Sequence record: MH791411.1
Direction: 5' to 3' (one strand)
DNA from: Escherichia phage Ecwhy_1
DNA: 64,000 nucleotides
Below the pieces are notes generated by a model. That model searched no databases, was not told the DNA's origin, and saw only the letters and a list, made by a program, of their open reading frames with translations. Positions within the stretch are counted from its first letter, which is position 1, and each line of letters begins with the position of its first letter. Below are positions 4,781 through 57,419 of this stretch, piece by piece. The translations under genes were made by a program, and so were the position numbers.

Positions 4781-5023
4781 TTACAGTACTTTACTATCAA
4801 TGGCAACTACTTTTTTAACATTAACGGCGTGGATCACTTCCTTCGTGTTTTTAGTACTGAATACTTTCGCCGCTCCTTGTTCGACCGTGATACGATAGCG
4901 ACCATTAACATCAACCATATTAATAAAGTCCGGCGTGCTGAATGGTGTTGTTTTACATTTGAGTACTGTTAACAGTTCCACCAGCGATGTAGTTTCTTTG
5001 ATACGTTTTTCTAAAGTAATCAT
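4781..5023 (-). CDS. hypothetical protein (80 aa)
   Basis: Trimmed to MITLEK start; TTGACA-N17-TACTAT and SD GGGGGAAAC upstream. Confidence 0.55.
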   Translation of the reverse strand: MITLEKRIKETTSLVELLTVLKCKTTPFSTPDFINMVDVNGRYRITVEQGAAKVFSTKNTKEVIHAVNVKKVVAIDSKVL

Positions 5024-51624: not shown

Positions 51625-51993
51625 CTATCGATTTGGCATTTTATCTCGTAATTTCACAAGATAATCAATCACGGTACATCCTGAAATAAAGGTAATATAA
51701 GTACTGAAAAATCCTACCAGAATAAAGGCAACAAGCGTACTCCCATTTGGTTCTTCAGCTTTAATACCAATGATACCATCAGATGCAGTGAAAAATGTAG
51801 ACATAAACGTTAGACAGATGTACATCACTAATAAGAATTCATGTTCTAATGACGGATAAAAACGGTCAAAGAGTTTATAAAATTTAAAGTACAGTAGGAG
51901 TATACCAACAAAGGCATAGAAAGTAAACAGTGTTGTTATGATATATGATATTAAATTTAAATTATACATCTCAACGCTCCGGTAGATTATCAC
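51625..51993 (-). CDS. small polytopic membrane protein, second tandem cluster (122 aa)
   Basis: Hydrophobic helices; C-terminus KLRDKMPNR. Confidence 0.6.
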   Translation of the reverse strand: MIIYRSVEMYNLNLISYIITTLFTFYAFVGILLLYFKFYKLFDRFYPSLEHEFLLVMYICLTFMSTFFTASDGIIGIKAEEPNGSTLVAFILVGFFSTYITFISGCTVIDYLVKLRDKMPNR

Positions 51994-52318
51994 GTAATGT
52001 TTTGATTCGATTATACAATTTCATTGCTACATTTCCAAATAAACCAAAACCCATTACTAAAATGTATGCGATGAACATAGTAATAATCACAATAGTACCT
52101 AGACTGTAATGTACTGCACTAATACCCATTATTGTTTCTACAATGATGTGAGCAACAGAAATAATCAAAAGTACTACTACAATTGGATGATTTGGATACA
52201 TTCGGTTAAACAATGTTTTGTACTTAAAGAAGTACAGTACTCCACCAAATAAGAAGTACACAATGTAGATTGATGCAATAGCATAAGCAAAAGCATTAGT
52301 GTAGAAAATCATTATCAA
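51971..52318 (-). CDS. small polytopic membrane protein, second tandem cluster (115 aa)
   Basis: Hydrophobic helices; C-terminus TLRDNLPER. Confidence 0.6.
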   Translation of the reverse strand: MIMIFYTNAFAYAIASIYIVYFLFGGVLYFFKYKTLFNRMYPNHPIVVVLLIISVAHIIVETIMGISAVHYSLGTIVIITMFIAYILVMGFGLFGNVAMKLYNRIKTLRDNLPER

Positions 52319-52321
52319 TCC

Positions 52322-52660
52322 TTACTTTTCAGGGATTTTATCACGCCACTCATCAATACGATGAAGCAGTTTAAAGAGCAAAAATATCGGAACAGTAGCT
52401 ATCATAATGGCAATTGTTAGTAATGTCAACCCCGATACGAGATTTAATTCGTCAGTACTATATCCACATACCAGTGCTTCAATTATCCCCCACGTACATG
52501 CACAGAACATCATAAATGAAATGGGTGCATCGTAGTATATGCGTTGATACAAGGTTGTGTATCGGAAGAATGCAATAATGTAACAAAACATGTAATACAC
52601 CCAAATTAACGATACTACATAAAATGATACCTTATTAATTAATTCAAAATGTTGTTCCAT
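52322..52660 (-). CDS. small polytopic membrane protein, second tandem cluster (112 aa)
   Basis: Hydrophobic helices; C-terminus EWRDKIPEK. Confidence 0.6.
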   Translation of the reverse strand: MEQHFELINKVSFYVVSLIWVYYMFCYIIAFFRYTTLYQRIYYDAPISFMMFCACTWGIIEALVCGYSTDELNLVSGLTLLTIAIMIATVPIFLLFKLLHRIDEWRDKIPEK

Positions 52661-53437: not shown

Positions 53438-53788
53438 TTATATTTTACATGTCATGTCTGGTTTTGGCTTTTCATTCTTTGGCTTTTCAAATGGATTTGG
53501 CTTAGGGGACTTTTTATCTTTGTCATCTTTAGCTTTCTTTTTGTTTTCTTTTTTATCCGATTTGTCAGCTTTGTCTTTCTTATCTTTTGAATCTTTGTCA
53601 GCTTTAGATTGTGGTTCCTCACATACAGCAGTTTTTGGCTCCGGCATATCACATGAGTTATCCACAGGTTTAATGAACTCTTTACAGTTGTAGAAGTATA
53701 AACTTTCATTGGTAGTAAGATTGTGGAATCTAAAAGTATTTTCACCATTAGTATATACTTTCTTAGTACTCTCAATATCATTACACAT
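53438..53788 (-). CDS. hypothetical protein with Lys/Asp-rich low-complexity tail
   Basis: Track ORF begins at a GTG; first ATG used here; alternative frame 53452-53802 is also open. Confidence 0.35.
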   Translation of the reverse strand: MCNDIESTKKVYTNGENTFRFHNLTTNESLYFYNCKEFIKPVDNSCDMPEPKTAVCEEPQSKADKDSKDKKDKADKSDKKENKKKAKDDKDKKSPKPNPFEKPKNEKPKPDMTCKI

Positions 53789-53798
53789 TGCAACCGTG

Positions 53799-54050
53799 TC
53801 ACCGGAATTCACGCTCGATACCTAGTATATCCGACTTACGTTCAGATAGTATTCCAGACGTATATCGATCTTTGTTATCAAATGCATTGAACCCTATAGT
53901 TTTATAATTGTCATGTACCAATCCTCTAGTGTAAGACTTGGTATAGAACTCACCGTTTCTAAACTCCTGTCTAGCAATGGAGCACTGGTATTCAGTACTA
54001 TAAACTATATCAGTAAACAATACAAGTGAAAATAAAACATATTTAAACAT
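53799..54050 (-). CDS. secreted protein (83 aa), predicted signal peptide
   Basis: N-terminus MFKYVLFSLVLFTDIVYS; SD AGAGGTAATG. Confidence 0.55.
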   Translation of the reverse strand: MFKYVLFSLVLFTDIVYSTEYQCSIARQEFRNGEFYTKSYTRGLVHDNYKTIGFNAFDNKDRYTSGILSERKSDILGIEREFR

Positions 54051-54121
54051 TGCATTACCTCTTATAAAACCCTCTACAATATTTACAAAAAAAGGTTGAC
54101 CGAAGTCAACCTTTTAAATGT

Positions 54122-55633
54122 TTATTTTTTATCCTTTCCAACACCACGGTCGTACTCTTTGAATGAGTTATCAAGTGTAGTTAGTGCATACTCATATGCT
54201 TCTGGTGATTCAATGTCAACATCATCTGCACCATTTACTAAATCAGCCCAAGCCTTTTGAAGTTTACGAGCATTGTTACCAACATTATCTTTAATCCAAC
54301 TAATGTTTTTGTTGATACTTTTACTATCAGCACCTGCTTTTTTACCAATCTCGGATATCCACATCATTAGCTTTTGAAGTTCATGAATTGATTTATCGGT
54401 CATTTCAAGATGTTCTTCTTCCATACCTTCGGAATCAGATGAACCAACGTCAATTCCATGTTTAGCTAATAGTTTACCAAGTTCAAAGAATGCAGCTTCA
54501 GCAGGGAAGTCATAACCTTTGTCTTTATAGTTATTCCATGCACTATCAAACTCGTCAACAAAACGGTTAGCATAATCTGGATTTTTAACTAATGCTTTAT
54601 ATACTGCCATTGCATGTTCAAAACCTTCTTTATCTGACCCAAACTCTTCCATCTCAGGACGATGAATGTATCCATCCATATCAACGGTATCAGGTAGATC
54701 TTCTTGCTCAGGCTCAACATCTTTCTGTTCAACTGCACCTTCTTCATCTTTACGTAGTAGATATCCATCAGGTGTCACTTTCTCACCATGTTCTGCTTCA
54801 TACTTTTTCATAGTGTTGAATGCAGCATCCATAGCTGTTACGAAGCGACTTTTCTCACCTTGTACATAAGATTTAAGTGCACTGTTAACTGCATCTGATA
54901 CGAGCTTAACCTTATCATCTTTACCTTCTAAACGGTTTTCAAGTTTAGCCAGTACATTCTTGACTTGCTGGGCATTAGCACGTTCTGCTTTACCAATACT
55001 ATCAAAAATTTTAAGAATACCATCAAGACTTGCTTCACCCTGTTCAGGTTCTTTGGAATCTTCTTTGTGTGTACCTTCAAGTGCACGCATGATAGTACTG
55101 AATACTTCAGTAGGTTCAGTGCTCTTATTACCTTTCATTGCATCAAGTACAGCTTGTGCTTTACCTTTGAGTTCTTCTTTAGGAACTGCCTGTAGTGCTT
55201 TGACAATACCCTGAATCAACTGTGGTTTGTTAGCAAAGATCTTACCTAAGTTATCAGATAACTCTTTAACAGGGTTAGCAGCTTTAGGAGCTTCTGGTTT
55301 TGGTTCTTCTTTAGGAACTGCTTGTTCTTTCTCAGCACGTTCCATATCAGCAAGGCGTTGTTTCTGTGTTGCGTTAAGAAGACCTAATGAGTTAACATAA
55401 CGTAGCTTTTCTAGCTCAGTCATGTTCTCAGTACTCTTAACTTCACCTGCTTCTGCGTTTGCCTTACCAGCTAAACCTGTCCCTTGATTACGTGAACCAC
55501 GTGACCCCTGTCCTGCTTGGTAGCTATTTTGACGACGATTGCGTTCACTCCATTTATCAGAGTGACCTGCCATGTTCCCGCCATTTTTATCAGTAAATTG
55601 ACCTGGCATTTGATTTCTCTCCATAGATTTCAT
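54122..55633 (-). CDS. hypothetical protein (about 500 aa), G/N/Q/R-rich N-terminus
   Basis: ORF (start may be ATG at 55609 with SD GGAGAG); shares motif with 56481-56864. Confidence 0.65.
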   Translation of the reverse strand: MKSMERNQMPGQFTDKNGGNMAGHSDKWSERNRRQNSYQAGQGSRGSRNQGTGLAGKANAEAGEVKSTENMTELEKLRYVNSLGLLNATQKQRLADMERAEKEQAVPKEEPKPEAPKAANPVKELSDNLGKIFANKPQLIQGIVKALQAVPKEELKGKAQAVLDAMKGNKSTEPTEVFSTIMRALEGTHKEDSKEPEQGEASLDGILKIFDSIGKAERANAQQVKNVLAKLENRLEGKDDKVKLVSDAVNSALKSYVQGEKSRFVTAMDAAFNTMKKYEAEHGEKVTPDGYLLRKDEEGAVEQKDVEPEQEDLPDTVDMDGYIHRPEMEEFGSDKEGFEHAMAVYKALVKNPDYANRFVDEFDSAWNNYKDKGYDFPAEAAFFELGKLLAKHGIDVGSSDSEGMEEEHLEMTDKSIHELQKLMMWISEIGKKAGADSKSINKNISWIKDNVGNNARKLQKAWADLVNGADDVDIESPEAYEYALTTLDNSFKEYDRGVGKDKK

Positions 55634-55714
55634 ATTGTTTATTCTCTATGACTATATTTATAGTATAAAGAAAAGGTTGACCGAAGTCAACCCTATTTTC
55701 ACTGTACTATACCA

Positions 55715-56011
55715 TTAGTAGTTACAGTCAGCTTTCGCTGTGAATGTTTTACTTTCACCTCGTTGTGTGGTGATTCGTCCGAGTAAAGTAGTTTTGTCAA
55801 TAGTCATTGTAGTTAGTACTGGAACATTACCTTCAAAGTCAATAGCTTTGAAATTGTAGGTGGTTTCATTCTCCACTACACTTGGACCAAAGAGTTCATA
55901 TGTGTTGATTTCAAGTGTGTCACCATCTGAACGCAACAGTGTGCAGTCCAGATTAGGAGTAGCCAGTACTGGGAAAGCCAAAAACATCATCATTACAATA
56001 ATTAATTTCAT
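55715..56011 (-). CDS. secreted protein (98 aa), predicted signal peptide
   Basis: N-terminus MKLIIVMMMFLAFPVLA; SD CAGGAG. Confidence 0.6.
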   Translation of the reverse strand: MKLIIVMMMFLAFPVLATPNLDCTLLRSDGDTLEINTYELFGPSVVENETTYNFKAIDFEGNVPVLTTMTIDKTTLLGRITTQRGESKTFTAKADCNY

Positions 56012-56271
56012 TTCACTTCTCCTGTTTTTTTCTTAGGATCAACCAATGACCAAATGAAGAATCCGAGAATTACAAGTACCCACAGAATCATGATAAAGAA
56101 AGCGAACAGTACAATAGTGTTTGTCAAAAAGAAATACAATAGAATGTTCGACCCAATACTACATACAATCAATGCAGCTTCATGTTTAACAACACGAATG
56201 GCTGTAATGAGTGCAGGAAGAAATCCGACAAATAACAGTACTAACGCATATAGTGATAATGTTTCAGCCAT
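56008..56271 (-). CDS. small membrane protein (87 aa)
   Basis: Hydrophobic helices; SD AAGGGATATC. Confidence 0.55.
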   Translation of the reverse strand: MAETLSLYALVLLFVGFLPALITAIRVVKHEAALIVCSIGSNILLYFFLTNTIVLFAFFIMILWVLVILGFFIWSLVDPKKKTGEVK

Positions 56272-56480
56272 GATATCCCTTATTTGGTTTGTTCAAAACT
56301 AGGTGTATTGATATAGGTGTCAATTGAATAACATACTGTACCCACTACAACAGCAGCGATTAGGGCAGCGATGATGAATTTAGTACCTTGCATAATTTAA
56401 TACCTCACGTTGTTTGTATTTTGTATCACTTGATGAAAATATTATACGACAAAGGGCTGACTGAAGTCAACCCCTTTTAA

Positions 56481-56864
56481 TTATTTTTTAAACTTATGTT
56501 TTTCGCCTTCAATAGAGTTCACGATGTCATCATGAATCTTGCGAAGGTTATGAGTTTTCTTTAGTGCTTCATGTAGTGCACGGAATGCTGCGTGTACTGT
56601 TGCCTTGAAGTGCTCTTTAGGAGTCACTTTAAGTTTCTCAATGATATCACGTACATAAATTGGATGATCTTCAAATACACGATTCAATTCATGGCCTAGT
56701 GATTCTAAACTGAAAGCTTTTTCGCGTGAAGGACGATCATGTGCAAGACTTTGGTCAGGCTTTAGTAGACCTAGTGAATCAAGATACTTATGCTTATGTG
56801 CATTATCAATTCCAGAAATATCCACATCATGCGATGGATCTTTCTTATTCCATTTATCAACCAT
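56481..56864 (-). CDS. hypothetical protein (127 aa), related to N-terminal part of 54122-55633
   Basis: Shared Y-x-(N/D)-SLGLL motif; SD AAGGAGTATG. Confidence 0.6.
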   Translation of the reverse strand: MVDKWNKKDPSHDVDISGIDNAHKHKYLDSLGLLKPDQSLAHDRPSREKAFSLESLGHELNRVFEDHPIYVRDIIEKLKVTPKEHFKATVHAAFRALHEALKKTHNLRKIHDDIVNSIEGEKHKFKK

Positions 56865-56975
56865 TTCATACTCCTTAAAGAGATAAATTACTTTAATATT
56901 TATACTTCATGTGCTGTTTATTTCAACAGACACTTAAGATTATATCACATATGAAATGGTTGTTCCAAAGTCAAA

Positions 56976-57419
56976 TCAGTACTGTTTAAGTTCTGAACTG
57001 AAGATAAAGGAATCCATATCTTCTAGTGTTAACTTCAAGTTCGGTGTGTACTTTAATATCACACATTCAGGTTTCTTAATGGCAGCTTGATAGGCAGCAA
57101 TTGCCAACTGTTGAAGCTGCTCTGGTGTGTAGTTCATGCGTTCTGCATTGAATACGATGTTCTTAATATCACCACCTGGCAGCTTCTCAAACTCACGCAT
57201 AACAGCAGCCATCACATCATCAGATGTATTCTTATAAGCCCAATGAGGTAGTTGCATAACGTCATAAATCTCGCCATTGTCGTTCATAAGAGAGATCCAT
57301 TTTTTACCGTCCGATGAACTAAACAGACGACCTTTAATAGCAATGTTCTCTACCAAATTAACAAAGGCAAATATGTCTTGCTCATTTAGTTCAATGCTAT
57401 TAACGTTAATCCAACCCAT
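56976..57419 (-). CDS. hypothetical protein (147 aa)
   Basis: Trimmed to MGWINV start with SD GGAG. Confidence 0.55.
   Translation of the reverse strand: MGWINVNSIELNEQDIFAFVNLVENIAIKGRLFSSSDGKKWISLMNDNGEIYDVMQLPHWAYKNTSDDVMAAVMREFEKLPGGDIKNIVFNAERMNYTPEQLQQLAIAAYQAAIKKPECVILKYTPNLKLTLEDMDSFIFSSELKQY

Follow-up and report, generated by a model that had tools for sequence, protein, structure and literature searches.

Two paralogous virion proteins of an Asteriusvirus jumbo phage share a helical module that may dock them in the particle

A 495-aa and a 127-aa protein encoded by Escherichia phage Ecwhy_1 are ordinary paralogues in a small, already catalogued virion-protein family (PHROG 16530 / PHROG 20398) found only in RaK2-like jumbo phages. 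The analysis of the 64-kb window, i.e. the whole stretch of DNA under study, established their homology and revealed a late-promoter motif in front of both genes, while published proteomic data document the association of their orthologues with virions. On balance, we lean towards the view that both are late-transcribed proteins docked in the particle by their shared module, possibly inside the head.

Identification of the two genes

The window was assigned to an Asteriusvirus jumbo phage of the 121Q/PBECO4 group, with several GenBank phages showing more than 99% identity. Both open reading frames were confirmed on the minus strand, and the peptides quoted in an earlier note on this DNA are present in each of them. 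The two genes are distant from the structural-gene clusters and are annotated as 'virion structural protein' in GenBank relatives such as 121Q and fEgEco12. Locus and architecture are the same in the orthologues. The differences are of no substance: in comparison with the 121Q locus, the window carries two additional small genes between the paralogues, and the large protein is present in the 495-aa form and not in the 417-aa form. An identical small protein (100%) was found in seven GenBank phages. The following features were defined:

54122..55609, minus strand: coding sequence of the large paralogue, 495 aa plus stop; orthologue of 121Q gp201, phAPEC6 gp035c and RaK2 gp275
55439..55609, minus strand: leader, aa 1-57; basic (pI ~10) and conserved, rich in G/S/R/N/Q and containing a near-invariant SRNQGTG (alignment A1)
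55322..55438, minus strand: helix, K-x-(K/R)-Y-x-x-x-L-G-L-L motif and next helix, aa 58-96
55277..55321, minus strand: P/E/K-rich linker, aa 97-111; insertion relative to the small paralogue (alignment A2)
55076..55276, minus strand: four-helix core of the shared module, aa 112-178, from hhalign against the core of the small family
54125..55075, minus strand: C-terminal extension, aa 179-495; acidic (pI 4.75), all-helical, absent from the small paralogue
56481..56864, minus strand: coding sequence of the small paralogue, 127 aa plus stop; orthologue of 121Q gp199, phAPEC6 gp037c and JP4_541
56763..56795, minus strand: KHKYLDSLGLL motif, aa 24-34
56484..56714, minus strand: four-helix core, aa 51-127, from AF2 and hhalign

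The start of the large gene is most likely Met9 (ATG at 55609, giving 495 aa), as a GGAGAG Shine-Dalgarno sequence (55617-55622) precedes it by 7 nt and almost all homologues open with MPGxF. The start at 55633 considered previously is thus probably 8 codons too far upstream. The small gene is preceded by an AAGGAG Shine-Dalgarno sequence at 56871-56876.

Homology of the two proteins

The earlier note had proposed that two otherwise different proteins share an N-terminal region. The similarity was clearly significant in pairwise alignment: BLASTP aligned residues 75-187 of the large protein with residues 23-120 of the small one at 26% identity (E = 5e-9), and the Smith-Waterman score of 89 compared with a shuffle mean of 35.6 +/- 5.3 (z = 10; 0 of 2000 shuffles scored as high). 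With the Y-x-x-SLGLL motif left out, the core alone reached a z of 11.6 against shuffles. A phmmer search over the 573 translated open reading frames of the window returned the reciprocal partner as sole match (E about 1e-5 to 1e-6), and hhalign comparison of the family profiles of both cores gave 96% probability (E 3.6e-9, 64 columns). The phrog_16530 profile matches residues 9-188 of the large protein (E 2.1e-40) and 6-124 of the small one (E 7.7e-55), the large protein being also matched by phrog_20398 (E 1.1e-244). Furthermore, P0013 and CBB_38 are sequences intermediate between the two proteins. The low identity and the compositional bias of the large protein could point to a resemblance by chance or through low complexity; nevertheless, alignment statistics, reciprocal profile matches and linking intermediates rule this out, and we give it practically no credence.

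While the sharing itself was thereby confirmed, it is not limited to an N-terminal patch. The region of similarity spans essentially the whole small protein, which is homologous to residues ~67-179 of the large one. The description as otherwise different proteins does not hold either: the small protein is the shared module, with no further part.

Domain architecture

The leader of the large protein (residues 1-57) was predicted to be disordered (AF2 pLDDT below 50), and the linker (97-111) likewise displayed a pLDDT below 50. Residues K68, Y71, L75 and G76 of the motif are invariant in both paralogue families and in the single-copy orthologues. The helices of the core were predicted at residues 113-124, 129-140, 144-160 and 166-178 of the large protein, and at 53-63, 68-79, 83-103 and 107-126 of the small one (pLDDT 71-88 in the latter core), in AF2 models of moderate quality (pLDDT about 70). 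The G/N/Q/R-rich leader is mostly missing from the small protein, where the gap aligns as a clean internal deletion of 33 residues, from 'DKW' to 'PSHDVD'.

The C-terminal extension is less uniform. Its middle (~aa 305-390) is present in some and absent in other near-identical phages; its last helical bundle (~405-488) is conserved, including G426 and N433 in alignment A1. In divergent large homologues, the N-terminal ~185 aa are best conserved (55-68% identity), and much of the remainder, namely the middle segments, could not be aligned. An origin of the extension's bundles by divergence from the shared core found no support in hhalign of segment profiles: against the core, no probability exceeded 2.4% for segment B (187-280), C (311-392) or D (397-492), and the highest value among comparisons of extension segments was 10% (B against D). 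The label 'chromosome segregation protein / SMC / SbcC' given to the large protein in phAPEC6 was rejected, no Pfam match being obtained at E <= 1, and is treated here as a coiled-coil or low-complexity artefact.

No informative fold match was obtained for the proteins. A profile search of the PDB gave no match below E = 0.26, and Foldseek against BFVD retrieved family members alone at E <= 1e-3; fold searches otherwise delivered generic helical bundles.

Family distribution and ancestry

An exhaustive profile search of 1.84 billion representatives retrieved solely proteins of RaK2-like phages, with just two paralogue lineages in them. The family architecture consists of a basic G/S/R/N leader with SRNQGTG, followed by the KxKYxxxLGLL motif and the four-helix core. 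All three elements are found in the large protein, while the small one has kept motif and core. In the window, a regex search of the six-frame translations identified these two open reading frames as the only carriers of the motif. A third carrier was found neither by phmmer across all window open reading frames, nor by regex in six-frame translations of the window and seven other loci, nor in the profile search of the 1.84 billion representatives or a scan of IMG/VR. One of the seven loci comprised 26.5 kb of the 121Q head-gene cluster, where the motif has no copy.

The ancestral form was probably a protein of ~155-172 aa with a disordered basic G/S/R/N-rich leader, the K-x-K-Y-x-x-x-L-G-L-L motif and a four-helix bundle. 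It is still encoded by a single-copy gene in CBB, GAP32, Serratia BF and Yersinia fHe-Yen9-04, whereas a duplication probably took place in the Asteriusvirus lineage. One duplicate, the 127-aa protein, would have lost 33 leader residues; the other would have kept the leader and gained the P/E/K linker, and it carries an acidic helical extension of ~315 aa, the middle segments of which vary. Both the ancestral architecture and the leader deletion are supported by alignment A2 and by P0013. In some metagenomic relatives (P0093, P0096) the core is duplicated in tandem. The family thus forms a natural 'deletion series' of leaderless small, leader-bearing 170-aa, tandem-core and long forms.

Presence in virions

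Mass spectrometry of purified phAPEC6 virions detected gp037c with 5 peptides (48% coverage) and gp035c with 8 peptides (28.8% coverage) (PMC7247149). The proteins of the window are 95-100% (small) and about 86% (large) identical to these orthologues. In virions of JP4, both JP4_543 and JP4_541 were found (PMC12648861), and CBB_038, GAP32_032 and RaK2 ORF275 were all positive (PMC5259590 Table S1). In CBB, GAP32 and RaK2 the detected protein is the ~170-aa counterpart encoded by a single-copy gene, or the long form of it; 9 peptides (56.6% coverage) were reported for CBB_38 and 20 peptides (34.3% coverage) for RaK2 gp275. The same phAPEC6 dataset also lists SSB, a RecA-like protein, a topoisomerase subunit and thymidylate synthase (PMC7247149). 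As these are obviously non-structural, detection by mass spectrometry alone does not prove a structural role. The small paralogue lacks the low-complexity leader and is yet found in virions, hence the leader cannot be the packaging signal.

Promoters and hairpins

The intergenic regions contain the following elements:

55655..55662, minus strand: TATAAATA, T4-type late promoter consensus, 45 nt upstream of the large-gene ATG
56897..56904, minus strand: TATAAATA, 32 nt upstream of the small-gene ATG; conserved upstream of 121Q gp199
54094..54111, minus strand: terminator-like hairpin GGTTGACTTCGGTCAACC with T-run, directly after the large-gene stop
55675..55692, minus strand: hairpin identical to the GGTTGACTTCGGTCAACC hairpin, upstream of the large gene
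56455..56472, minus strand: variant of the GGTTGACTTCGGTCAACC hairpin, just after the small-gene stop, paired with TATAAT at 18 nt

The TATAAATA motif is depleted in the window (3 copies in 64 kb, against 13.7 +/- 3.9 expected), and all three copies are located 27-45 nt upstream of genes with virion-protein homologues. The motif also precedes the scaffold, MCP and baseplate-hub genes of 121Q, a phage which encodes a late sigma factor. Together with the proteomic detection of orthologues in phAPEC6 and JP4 and of distant members in CBB, GAP32 and RaK2, this T4-type motif upholds the earlier proposal that the proteins are packaged in virions. Expression may not be exclusively late, since the stem of the hairpin at 55675..55692 provides a TTGACT that is paired with TATACT (17-nt spacing), forming a sigma-70-like promoter which overlaps the late motif of the large gene, and since a consensus sigma-70 promoter takes the place of TATAAATA at the CBB and BF orthologues.

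Possible roles of the shared module

The shared module most likely serves as the anchor of both proteins within the particle. The LGLL motif and the helical core are proposed as the docking part, as they are common to every virion-associated member, and leader and C-terminal extension may be lineage-specific payload or modulators. The most speculative element is a docking site inside the head, where the proteins could be DNA-associated or part of an inner body. Such a location is suggested by the inner body made visible by bubblegram imaging in 121Q (PMC5646251) and phAPEC6 (PMC7247149), and by the position of the genes outside the structural clusters, like those of T4 internal proteins.

The parallel with the T4 internal proteins (IPI, IPII, IPIII and Alt) deserves closer consideration. 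These are also products of late genes outside the head-gene cluster that end up in virions, and they also combine a conserved N-terminal portion with a variable remainder, which in the paralogues corresponds to the middle segments of the extension at a plastic locus. In a strictly T4-like scheme, which takes the earlier comparison with targeting sequences literally, an N-terminal capsid-targeting sequence (CTS) would be bound by the scaffold core and cut by a gp21-like protease, and the mature proteins would be ejected with the DNA. The 121Q genome does encode a T4-like head module (genes 598 and 601-603, annotated as T4 gp20/21/22/23-like portal, protease, scaffold and MCP), and an L-T-E|S occurs in its MCP near residue 43, in agreement with the reported processing from 42 to 37 kDa. 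However, the T4 CTS is a peptide of ~10 residues cut at L/I-x-E, whereas the paralogues share a folded module of ~110 aa, the removal of which would leave nothing of the small protein. No conserved L/I-x-E site was found between leader, motif and core or after the module, the sole triplets (408 and 418 in the large protein, 74 and 97 in the small one) being located within predicted helices; processing of the head-core type is therefore not indicated. Moreover, there are only two carriers per genome, and neither protein gave a Pfam or PHROG match to T4 IPI/II/III or Alt. We consider the T4-like scheme quite improbable, and the picture of a short targeting tag is not supported.

The failure to find a protease site would also fit an external accessory, such as a protein that decorates or cements the capsid, an anchor of the 'hairy' fibres of capsid or tail, or a neck or tail accessory. 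In that case the module would attach to the outer face of shell or sheath, leaving the variable acidic extension exposed at the surface, a setting that would equally suit its indels among near-identical phages. Cement proteins are commonly small and helical, and the phAPEC6 cryo-EM structure displays decoration, vertex and fibre-anchor densities without assigned protein; the phiKp24 cryo-EM paper, for its part, contains nothing on the PHROG 16530/20398 family. Against this location stand the distance of the genes from the structural clusters, the disordered, basic and conserved leader and the strongly acidic extension, neither of which is typical of cement proteins, and the signals in mass spectrometry, which are moderate and do not reach that of the major capsid protein (abundance of 5e6 for JP4_541, compared with 1.4e8 for one abundant structural protein). 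An external position thus appears possible but rather unlikely. Still less can be said for non-structural proteins, associated with nucleic acids or membranes, that co-purify with virions and owe their similarity to duplication of a gene of unrelated function. The replication and metabolic proteins in the phAPEC6 preparation and the sigma-70-like promoters would be in line with such contaminants, but detection in five independent preparations from five phages with good coverage, and the otherwise depleted late motif at both genes, make them very improbable.

Returning to the docking of both proteins by their module, a more specific version was considered in relation to the inner bodies of phiKZ-type phages. 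The inner-body and ejection proteins of phiKZ, 201phi2-1 and SPN3US resemble the paralogues in being virion proteins in paralogous families, mostly of helical or disordered structure, whose genes lie apart from the main structural ones. The setting is comparable too, namely a jumbo phage with an inner body visible in bubblegrams, as in 121Q and phAPEC6. The phAPEC6 study found no counterparts of the phiKZ inner-body proteins in that phage (PMC7247149), and no similarity in sequence or fold (Foldseek against BFVD) of the paralogues to phiKZ gp89/90/93/95/97/162 or to their SPN3US/201phi2-1 homologues was detected. S/A/G-x-E triplets do occur (e.g. AGE 54 and ALE 176 in the large protein, SIE 117 in the small one), without being conserved in the orthologues of CBB and BF. 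It is conceivable, if unlikely, that the KxKYxxxLGLL and four-helix module docks to an inner body or DNA-associated core of non-phiKZ type in the T=28 RaK2-like phages, with the small protein as building block and the large one as an early effector. The latter would then deliver its acidic, indel-variable extension by ejection into the host.

In its present form, the result is correct but amounts to routine annotation: the virion-protein family is already catalogued and the phage genus well sampled. It would gain importance only if the shared module turned out to direct incorporation into the inner body of 121Q and phAPEC6. Should the module indeed dock there, the family would provide a first molecular entry point to an inner body whose evolution was independent of that of phiKZ, and the module would represent a natural packaging tag for cargo.

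Similarity of the two proteins and identity of the phage

The earlier note had reported two proteins, at 54122-55633 (large) and 56481-56864 (small), that share a Y-x-(N/D)-SLGLL region. Both ORFs lie on the minus strand and contain the peptides given in the note, and the similarity was borne out by pairwise alignment, shuffling and profile comparison. BLASTP aligned residues 23-120 of the small protein with residues 75-187 of the large one at 26% identity (E = 5e-9), and a phmmer search over the translations of all 573 window ORFs retrieved solely the reciprocal partner. The Smith-Waterman score lay 10 sd above 2000 shuffles; the helical core without the Y-x-x-SLGLL motif reached 11.6 sd. Core-restricted hhalign of the two family profiles gave 96% probability (E 3.6e-9), and PHROG profile 16530 (168 positions) matched both proteins. 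The similarity is real, and it is no short N-terminal patch, as the shared region is essentially the entire small protein.

Megablast of 54000-57000 matched eight jumbo coliphages, including vB_Ec-M-J, Turkey3, BF17, WPEC3/5 and fEgEco12, at 98-99.5% identity over the full 3 kb (96% coverage for one), and 121Q and PBECO4 at about 92% identity. The phage was therefore assigned to Asteriusvirus, within the RaK2-like jumbo myoviruses. The counterparts in RefSeq 121Q, gp201 (large, 495 aa) and gp199 (small, 127 aa), are labelled 'virion structural protein', as are g555 and g551 of fEgEco12. The two window proteins belong to PHROGs 16530 and 20398. As GGAGAG is located 7 nt 5' of the ATG at 55609 and nearly all homologues start with MPGxF, the large gene almost certainly begins at Met9 of the ORF as first read.

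Architecture and history of the family

The alignment included the single-copy orthologues CBB_38 (Pectobacterium phage CBB, 172 aa) and gp027 of Serratia phage BF (155 aa), as well as the N-terminus of RaK2 gp275. It points to an ancestral protein with three parts, namely a leader, a motif helix and a four-helix bundle. The leader is basic, conserved and G/S/R/N/Q-rich with a near-invariant SRNQGTG, and was predicted by AF2 to be disordered (pLDDT below 50 across residues 1-57). The motif helix reads K-x-(K/R)-Y-x-x-x-L-G-L-L with invariant K, Y, L and G. The small protein displays this architecture minus 33 leader residues, a clean internal deletion between 'DKW' and 'PSHDVD'; the full leader together with a small-type core occurs in P0013, a metagenomic relative of 171 aa. 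The large protein has kept the leader, has gained a P/E/K-rich linker behind the motif and ends in an acidic (pI 4.75), all-helical extension of ~315 aa. While its N-terminal ~185 residues are 55-68% identical across divergent homologues, much of the remainder, chiefly the middle segments, no longer aligns. The last bundle (~405-488) is conserved, with G426 and N433 invariant. Indels affect the middle of the extension even among near-identical phages, and 121Q gp201 minus a segment of ~85 aa corresponds to phAPEC6 gp035c. Two tandem cores were found in some metagenomic relatives (P0093, P0096). The family is very small. A search of 1.84 billion representatives yielded 35 clusters (50% identity), and IMG/VR gave matches to 121Q and RaK2 only.

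Foldseek against BFVD returned family members only and gave no functional lead, and a profile search of PDB sequences gave no match. The label 'chromosome segregation/SMC' of phAPEC6 gp035c had no Pfam support.

Detection of orthologues in virions

The proposal of the earlier note that these are packaged proteins is supported by published virion proteomes, which consistently include orthologues. In phAPEC6, gp035c (large) was detected with 28.8% coverage and 8 unique peptides, and gp037c (small), which shares 95% identity with its window counterpart, with 48% coverage and 5 peptides (PMC7247149, Table 1). Both JP4_543 (large) and JP4_541 (small) were found in JP4 virions (PMC12648861, dataset 1). 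CBB_038, GAP32_032 and RaK2 ORF275 were positive in all three of CBB, GAP32 and RaK2 (PMC5259590, Table S1). CBB_38 reached 56.6% coverage with 9 peptides. For RaK2 gp275, coverage was 34.3% with 20 peptides (PMC3622015, Table S3).

Promoters and hairpins

The sequence TATAAATA is the T4 late-promoter consensus. It occurs three times in the 64-kb window, where 13.7 +/- 3.9 copies are expected, and is thus avoided elsewhere.

Copies of TATAAATA in the window
55655-55662, minus strand, 45 nt upstream of the large gene start codon
56897-56904, minus strand, 32 nt upstream of the small gene start codon
26846-26853, plus strand, 27 nt upstream of an RCC1-like gene

All three copies are located 27-45 nt upstream of genes with virion-protein homologues, the phAPEC6 paralogues of the RCC1-like gene being in the virion proteome as well (PMC7247149). 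The distribution of TATAAATA is that of a T4-type late promoter, with selection against further copies in the window. Since in 121Q this octamer lies ahead of the genes for the scaffold, the major capsid protein and the baseplate hub, and a late sigma factor is encoded, late transcription of both paralogue genes is a well supported prediction.

The prediction is qualified by the promoters of the CBB and BF orthologues, described below, and by a sigma-70-like promoter (TTGACT, 17 nt, TATACT) of the large gene, partly made of the upstream terminator hairpin. This hairpin is conserved; it consists of GGTTGACTTCGGTCAACC with a T-run behind it and has nine copies on the coding strand against 0 expected by chance.

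Copies of the GGTTGACTTCGGTCAACC hairpin (18 nt each)
11409, minus strand
45493, minus strand
47131, minus strand
48938, minus strand
53412, minus strand
54094, minus strand
55675, minus strand
56455, minus strand
60049, minus strand

At two copies (55675 and 56455), the TTGACT of the stem is followed 17-18 nt on by TATACT or TATAAT, which would let the hairpin serve as terminator and sigma-70-type promoter in a single cassette. Promoter-stem-loop cassettes exist in T4-type phages, of which this arrangement is reminiscent.

CBB_38 and BF gp027 are preceded by a consensus TTGACA-17-TATAAT sigma-70 promoter (4890-5000 in both comparison loci, L004 and L006, respectively), and TATAAATA is absent upstream of both genes. 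The spacer of this promoter, together with the region downstream, forms a CCCCTAA...TTAGGGG hairpin. The family is therefore regulated differently from genus to genus. CBB_38 is present twice because it lies inside the 22-kb terminal repeat of CBB.

Place in the particle

The LGLL motif and the four-helix core would hold both proteins in the particle; being common to every virion-associated member, they are the best candidate for such an element. The low-complexity leader appears dispensable for incorporation, as phAPEC6 and JP4 virions contain the small paralogue despite its missing leader. The earlier note had likened the shared region to targeting sequences, as an N-terminal module borne by proteins that otherwise differ. 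What is shared is a folded domain of ~110 aa, against the ~10-aa peptide of T4. No conserved L/I-x-E was found at any domain boundary of the paralogues, whereas the 121Q MCP does show LTE|S at the expected processing point, and the motif occurs in no other ORF of the window or of the 121Q head cluster. A literal T4-style targeting sequence is thus not supported. In gene placement, timing and conservation pattern the paralogues resemble T4 internal proteins and phiKZ-type inner-body families, but no conserved cleavage motif and no sequence or fold similarity to them was found, and on testable grounds they do not qualify as members of either.

Docking of the module in the head interior is weakly favoured. 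Bubblegrams revealed a phiKZ-like inner body in 121Q (PMC5646251) and phAPEC6 (PMC7247149), presumably made of proteins unrelated to those of phiKZ (PMC7247149, PMC5646251), and neither paralogue gene is part of a structural cluster. The disordered, basic leader and the acidic extension with its variable segments would also suit DNA-associated or ejected proteins. An external role, as decoration protein, fibre anchor or tail accessory, is a serious rival to the interior location, as several external densities in the phAPEC6 maps have no assigned protein (PMC7247149).

Neighbouring loci

The paralogue locus is plastic. Two small genes between the paralogues (55715-56271, minus strand), present in fEgEco12 and absent from 121Q, encode a 98-aa protein whose N-terminus resembles a signal peptide and a multi-pass membrane protein of 87 aa; in vB_Ec-M-J, 'immunity to superinfection' and 'membrane protein' are among the annotations across this 3-kb stretch. 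Further features were observed in the window:

26881-28029 and 27968-29206, plus strand, tandem RCC1-like ('DNA condensation protein') paralogues with the common conserved N-terminal peptide MLPFVRM(F/V)(D/K)YGN
51625-52660, minus strand, tandem array of three small membrane proteins (122, 115 and 112 aa), paralogues with similar C-termini (...RDKMPNR, ...RDNLPER, ...RDKIPEK)
53438-53812, minus strand, 124-aa ORF with a long K/D-rich low-complexity tail (KADKDSKDKKDKADKSDKKENKKKAKDDKDKK...)
53799-54050, downstream of the latter, 83-aa signal-peptide protein labelled 'lytic conversion lipoprotein' in fEgEco12

The JP4 virion proteins JP4_581 and JP4_577 have the same start as the RCC1-like peptide (PMC12648861). 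This start may be a true N-terminal signal common to several virion proteins, or no more than the first propeller blade. In 121Q, gp597 ('virion structural protein', 734 aa), encoded just upstream of the portal gene (L007, 6522-8726), contains a stretch rich in G/S/N/R/K, GSKSGKRNGSNSSSTGNRGSRTNNK, and after it GKIFKSL. It loosely recalls the family leader and 'LGKIF' helix; gp597 matched neither the SRNQGTG nor the KYxxLGLL pattern. The GC skew of the window switches sign at about 21-22 kb and 41-42 kb, in line with the changes of coding strand, and G+C ranges from 30 to 41%.

The genes, their virion association and the relationship between CBB_38 and RaK2 ORF275 are already in databases and papers. 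Added here are the explicit paralogy of the small and large proteins, the history of leader deletion, a revised start codon for the large gene, and the late-promoter setting of the genes.
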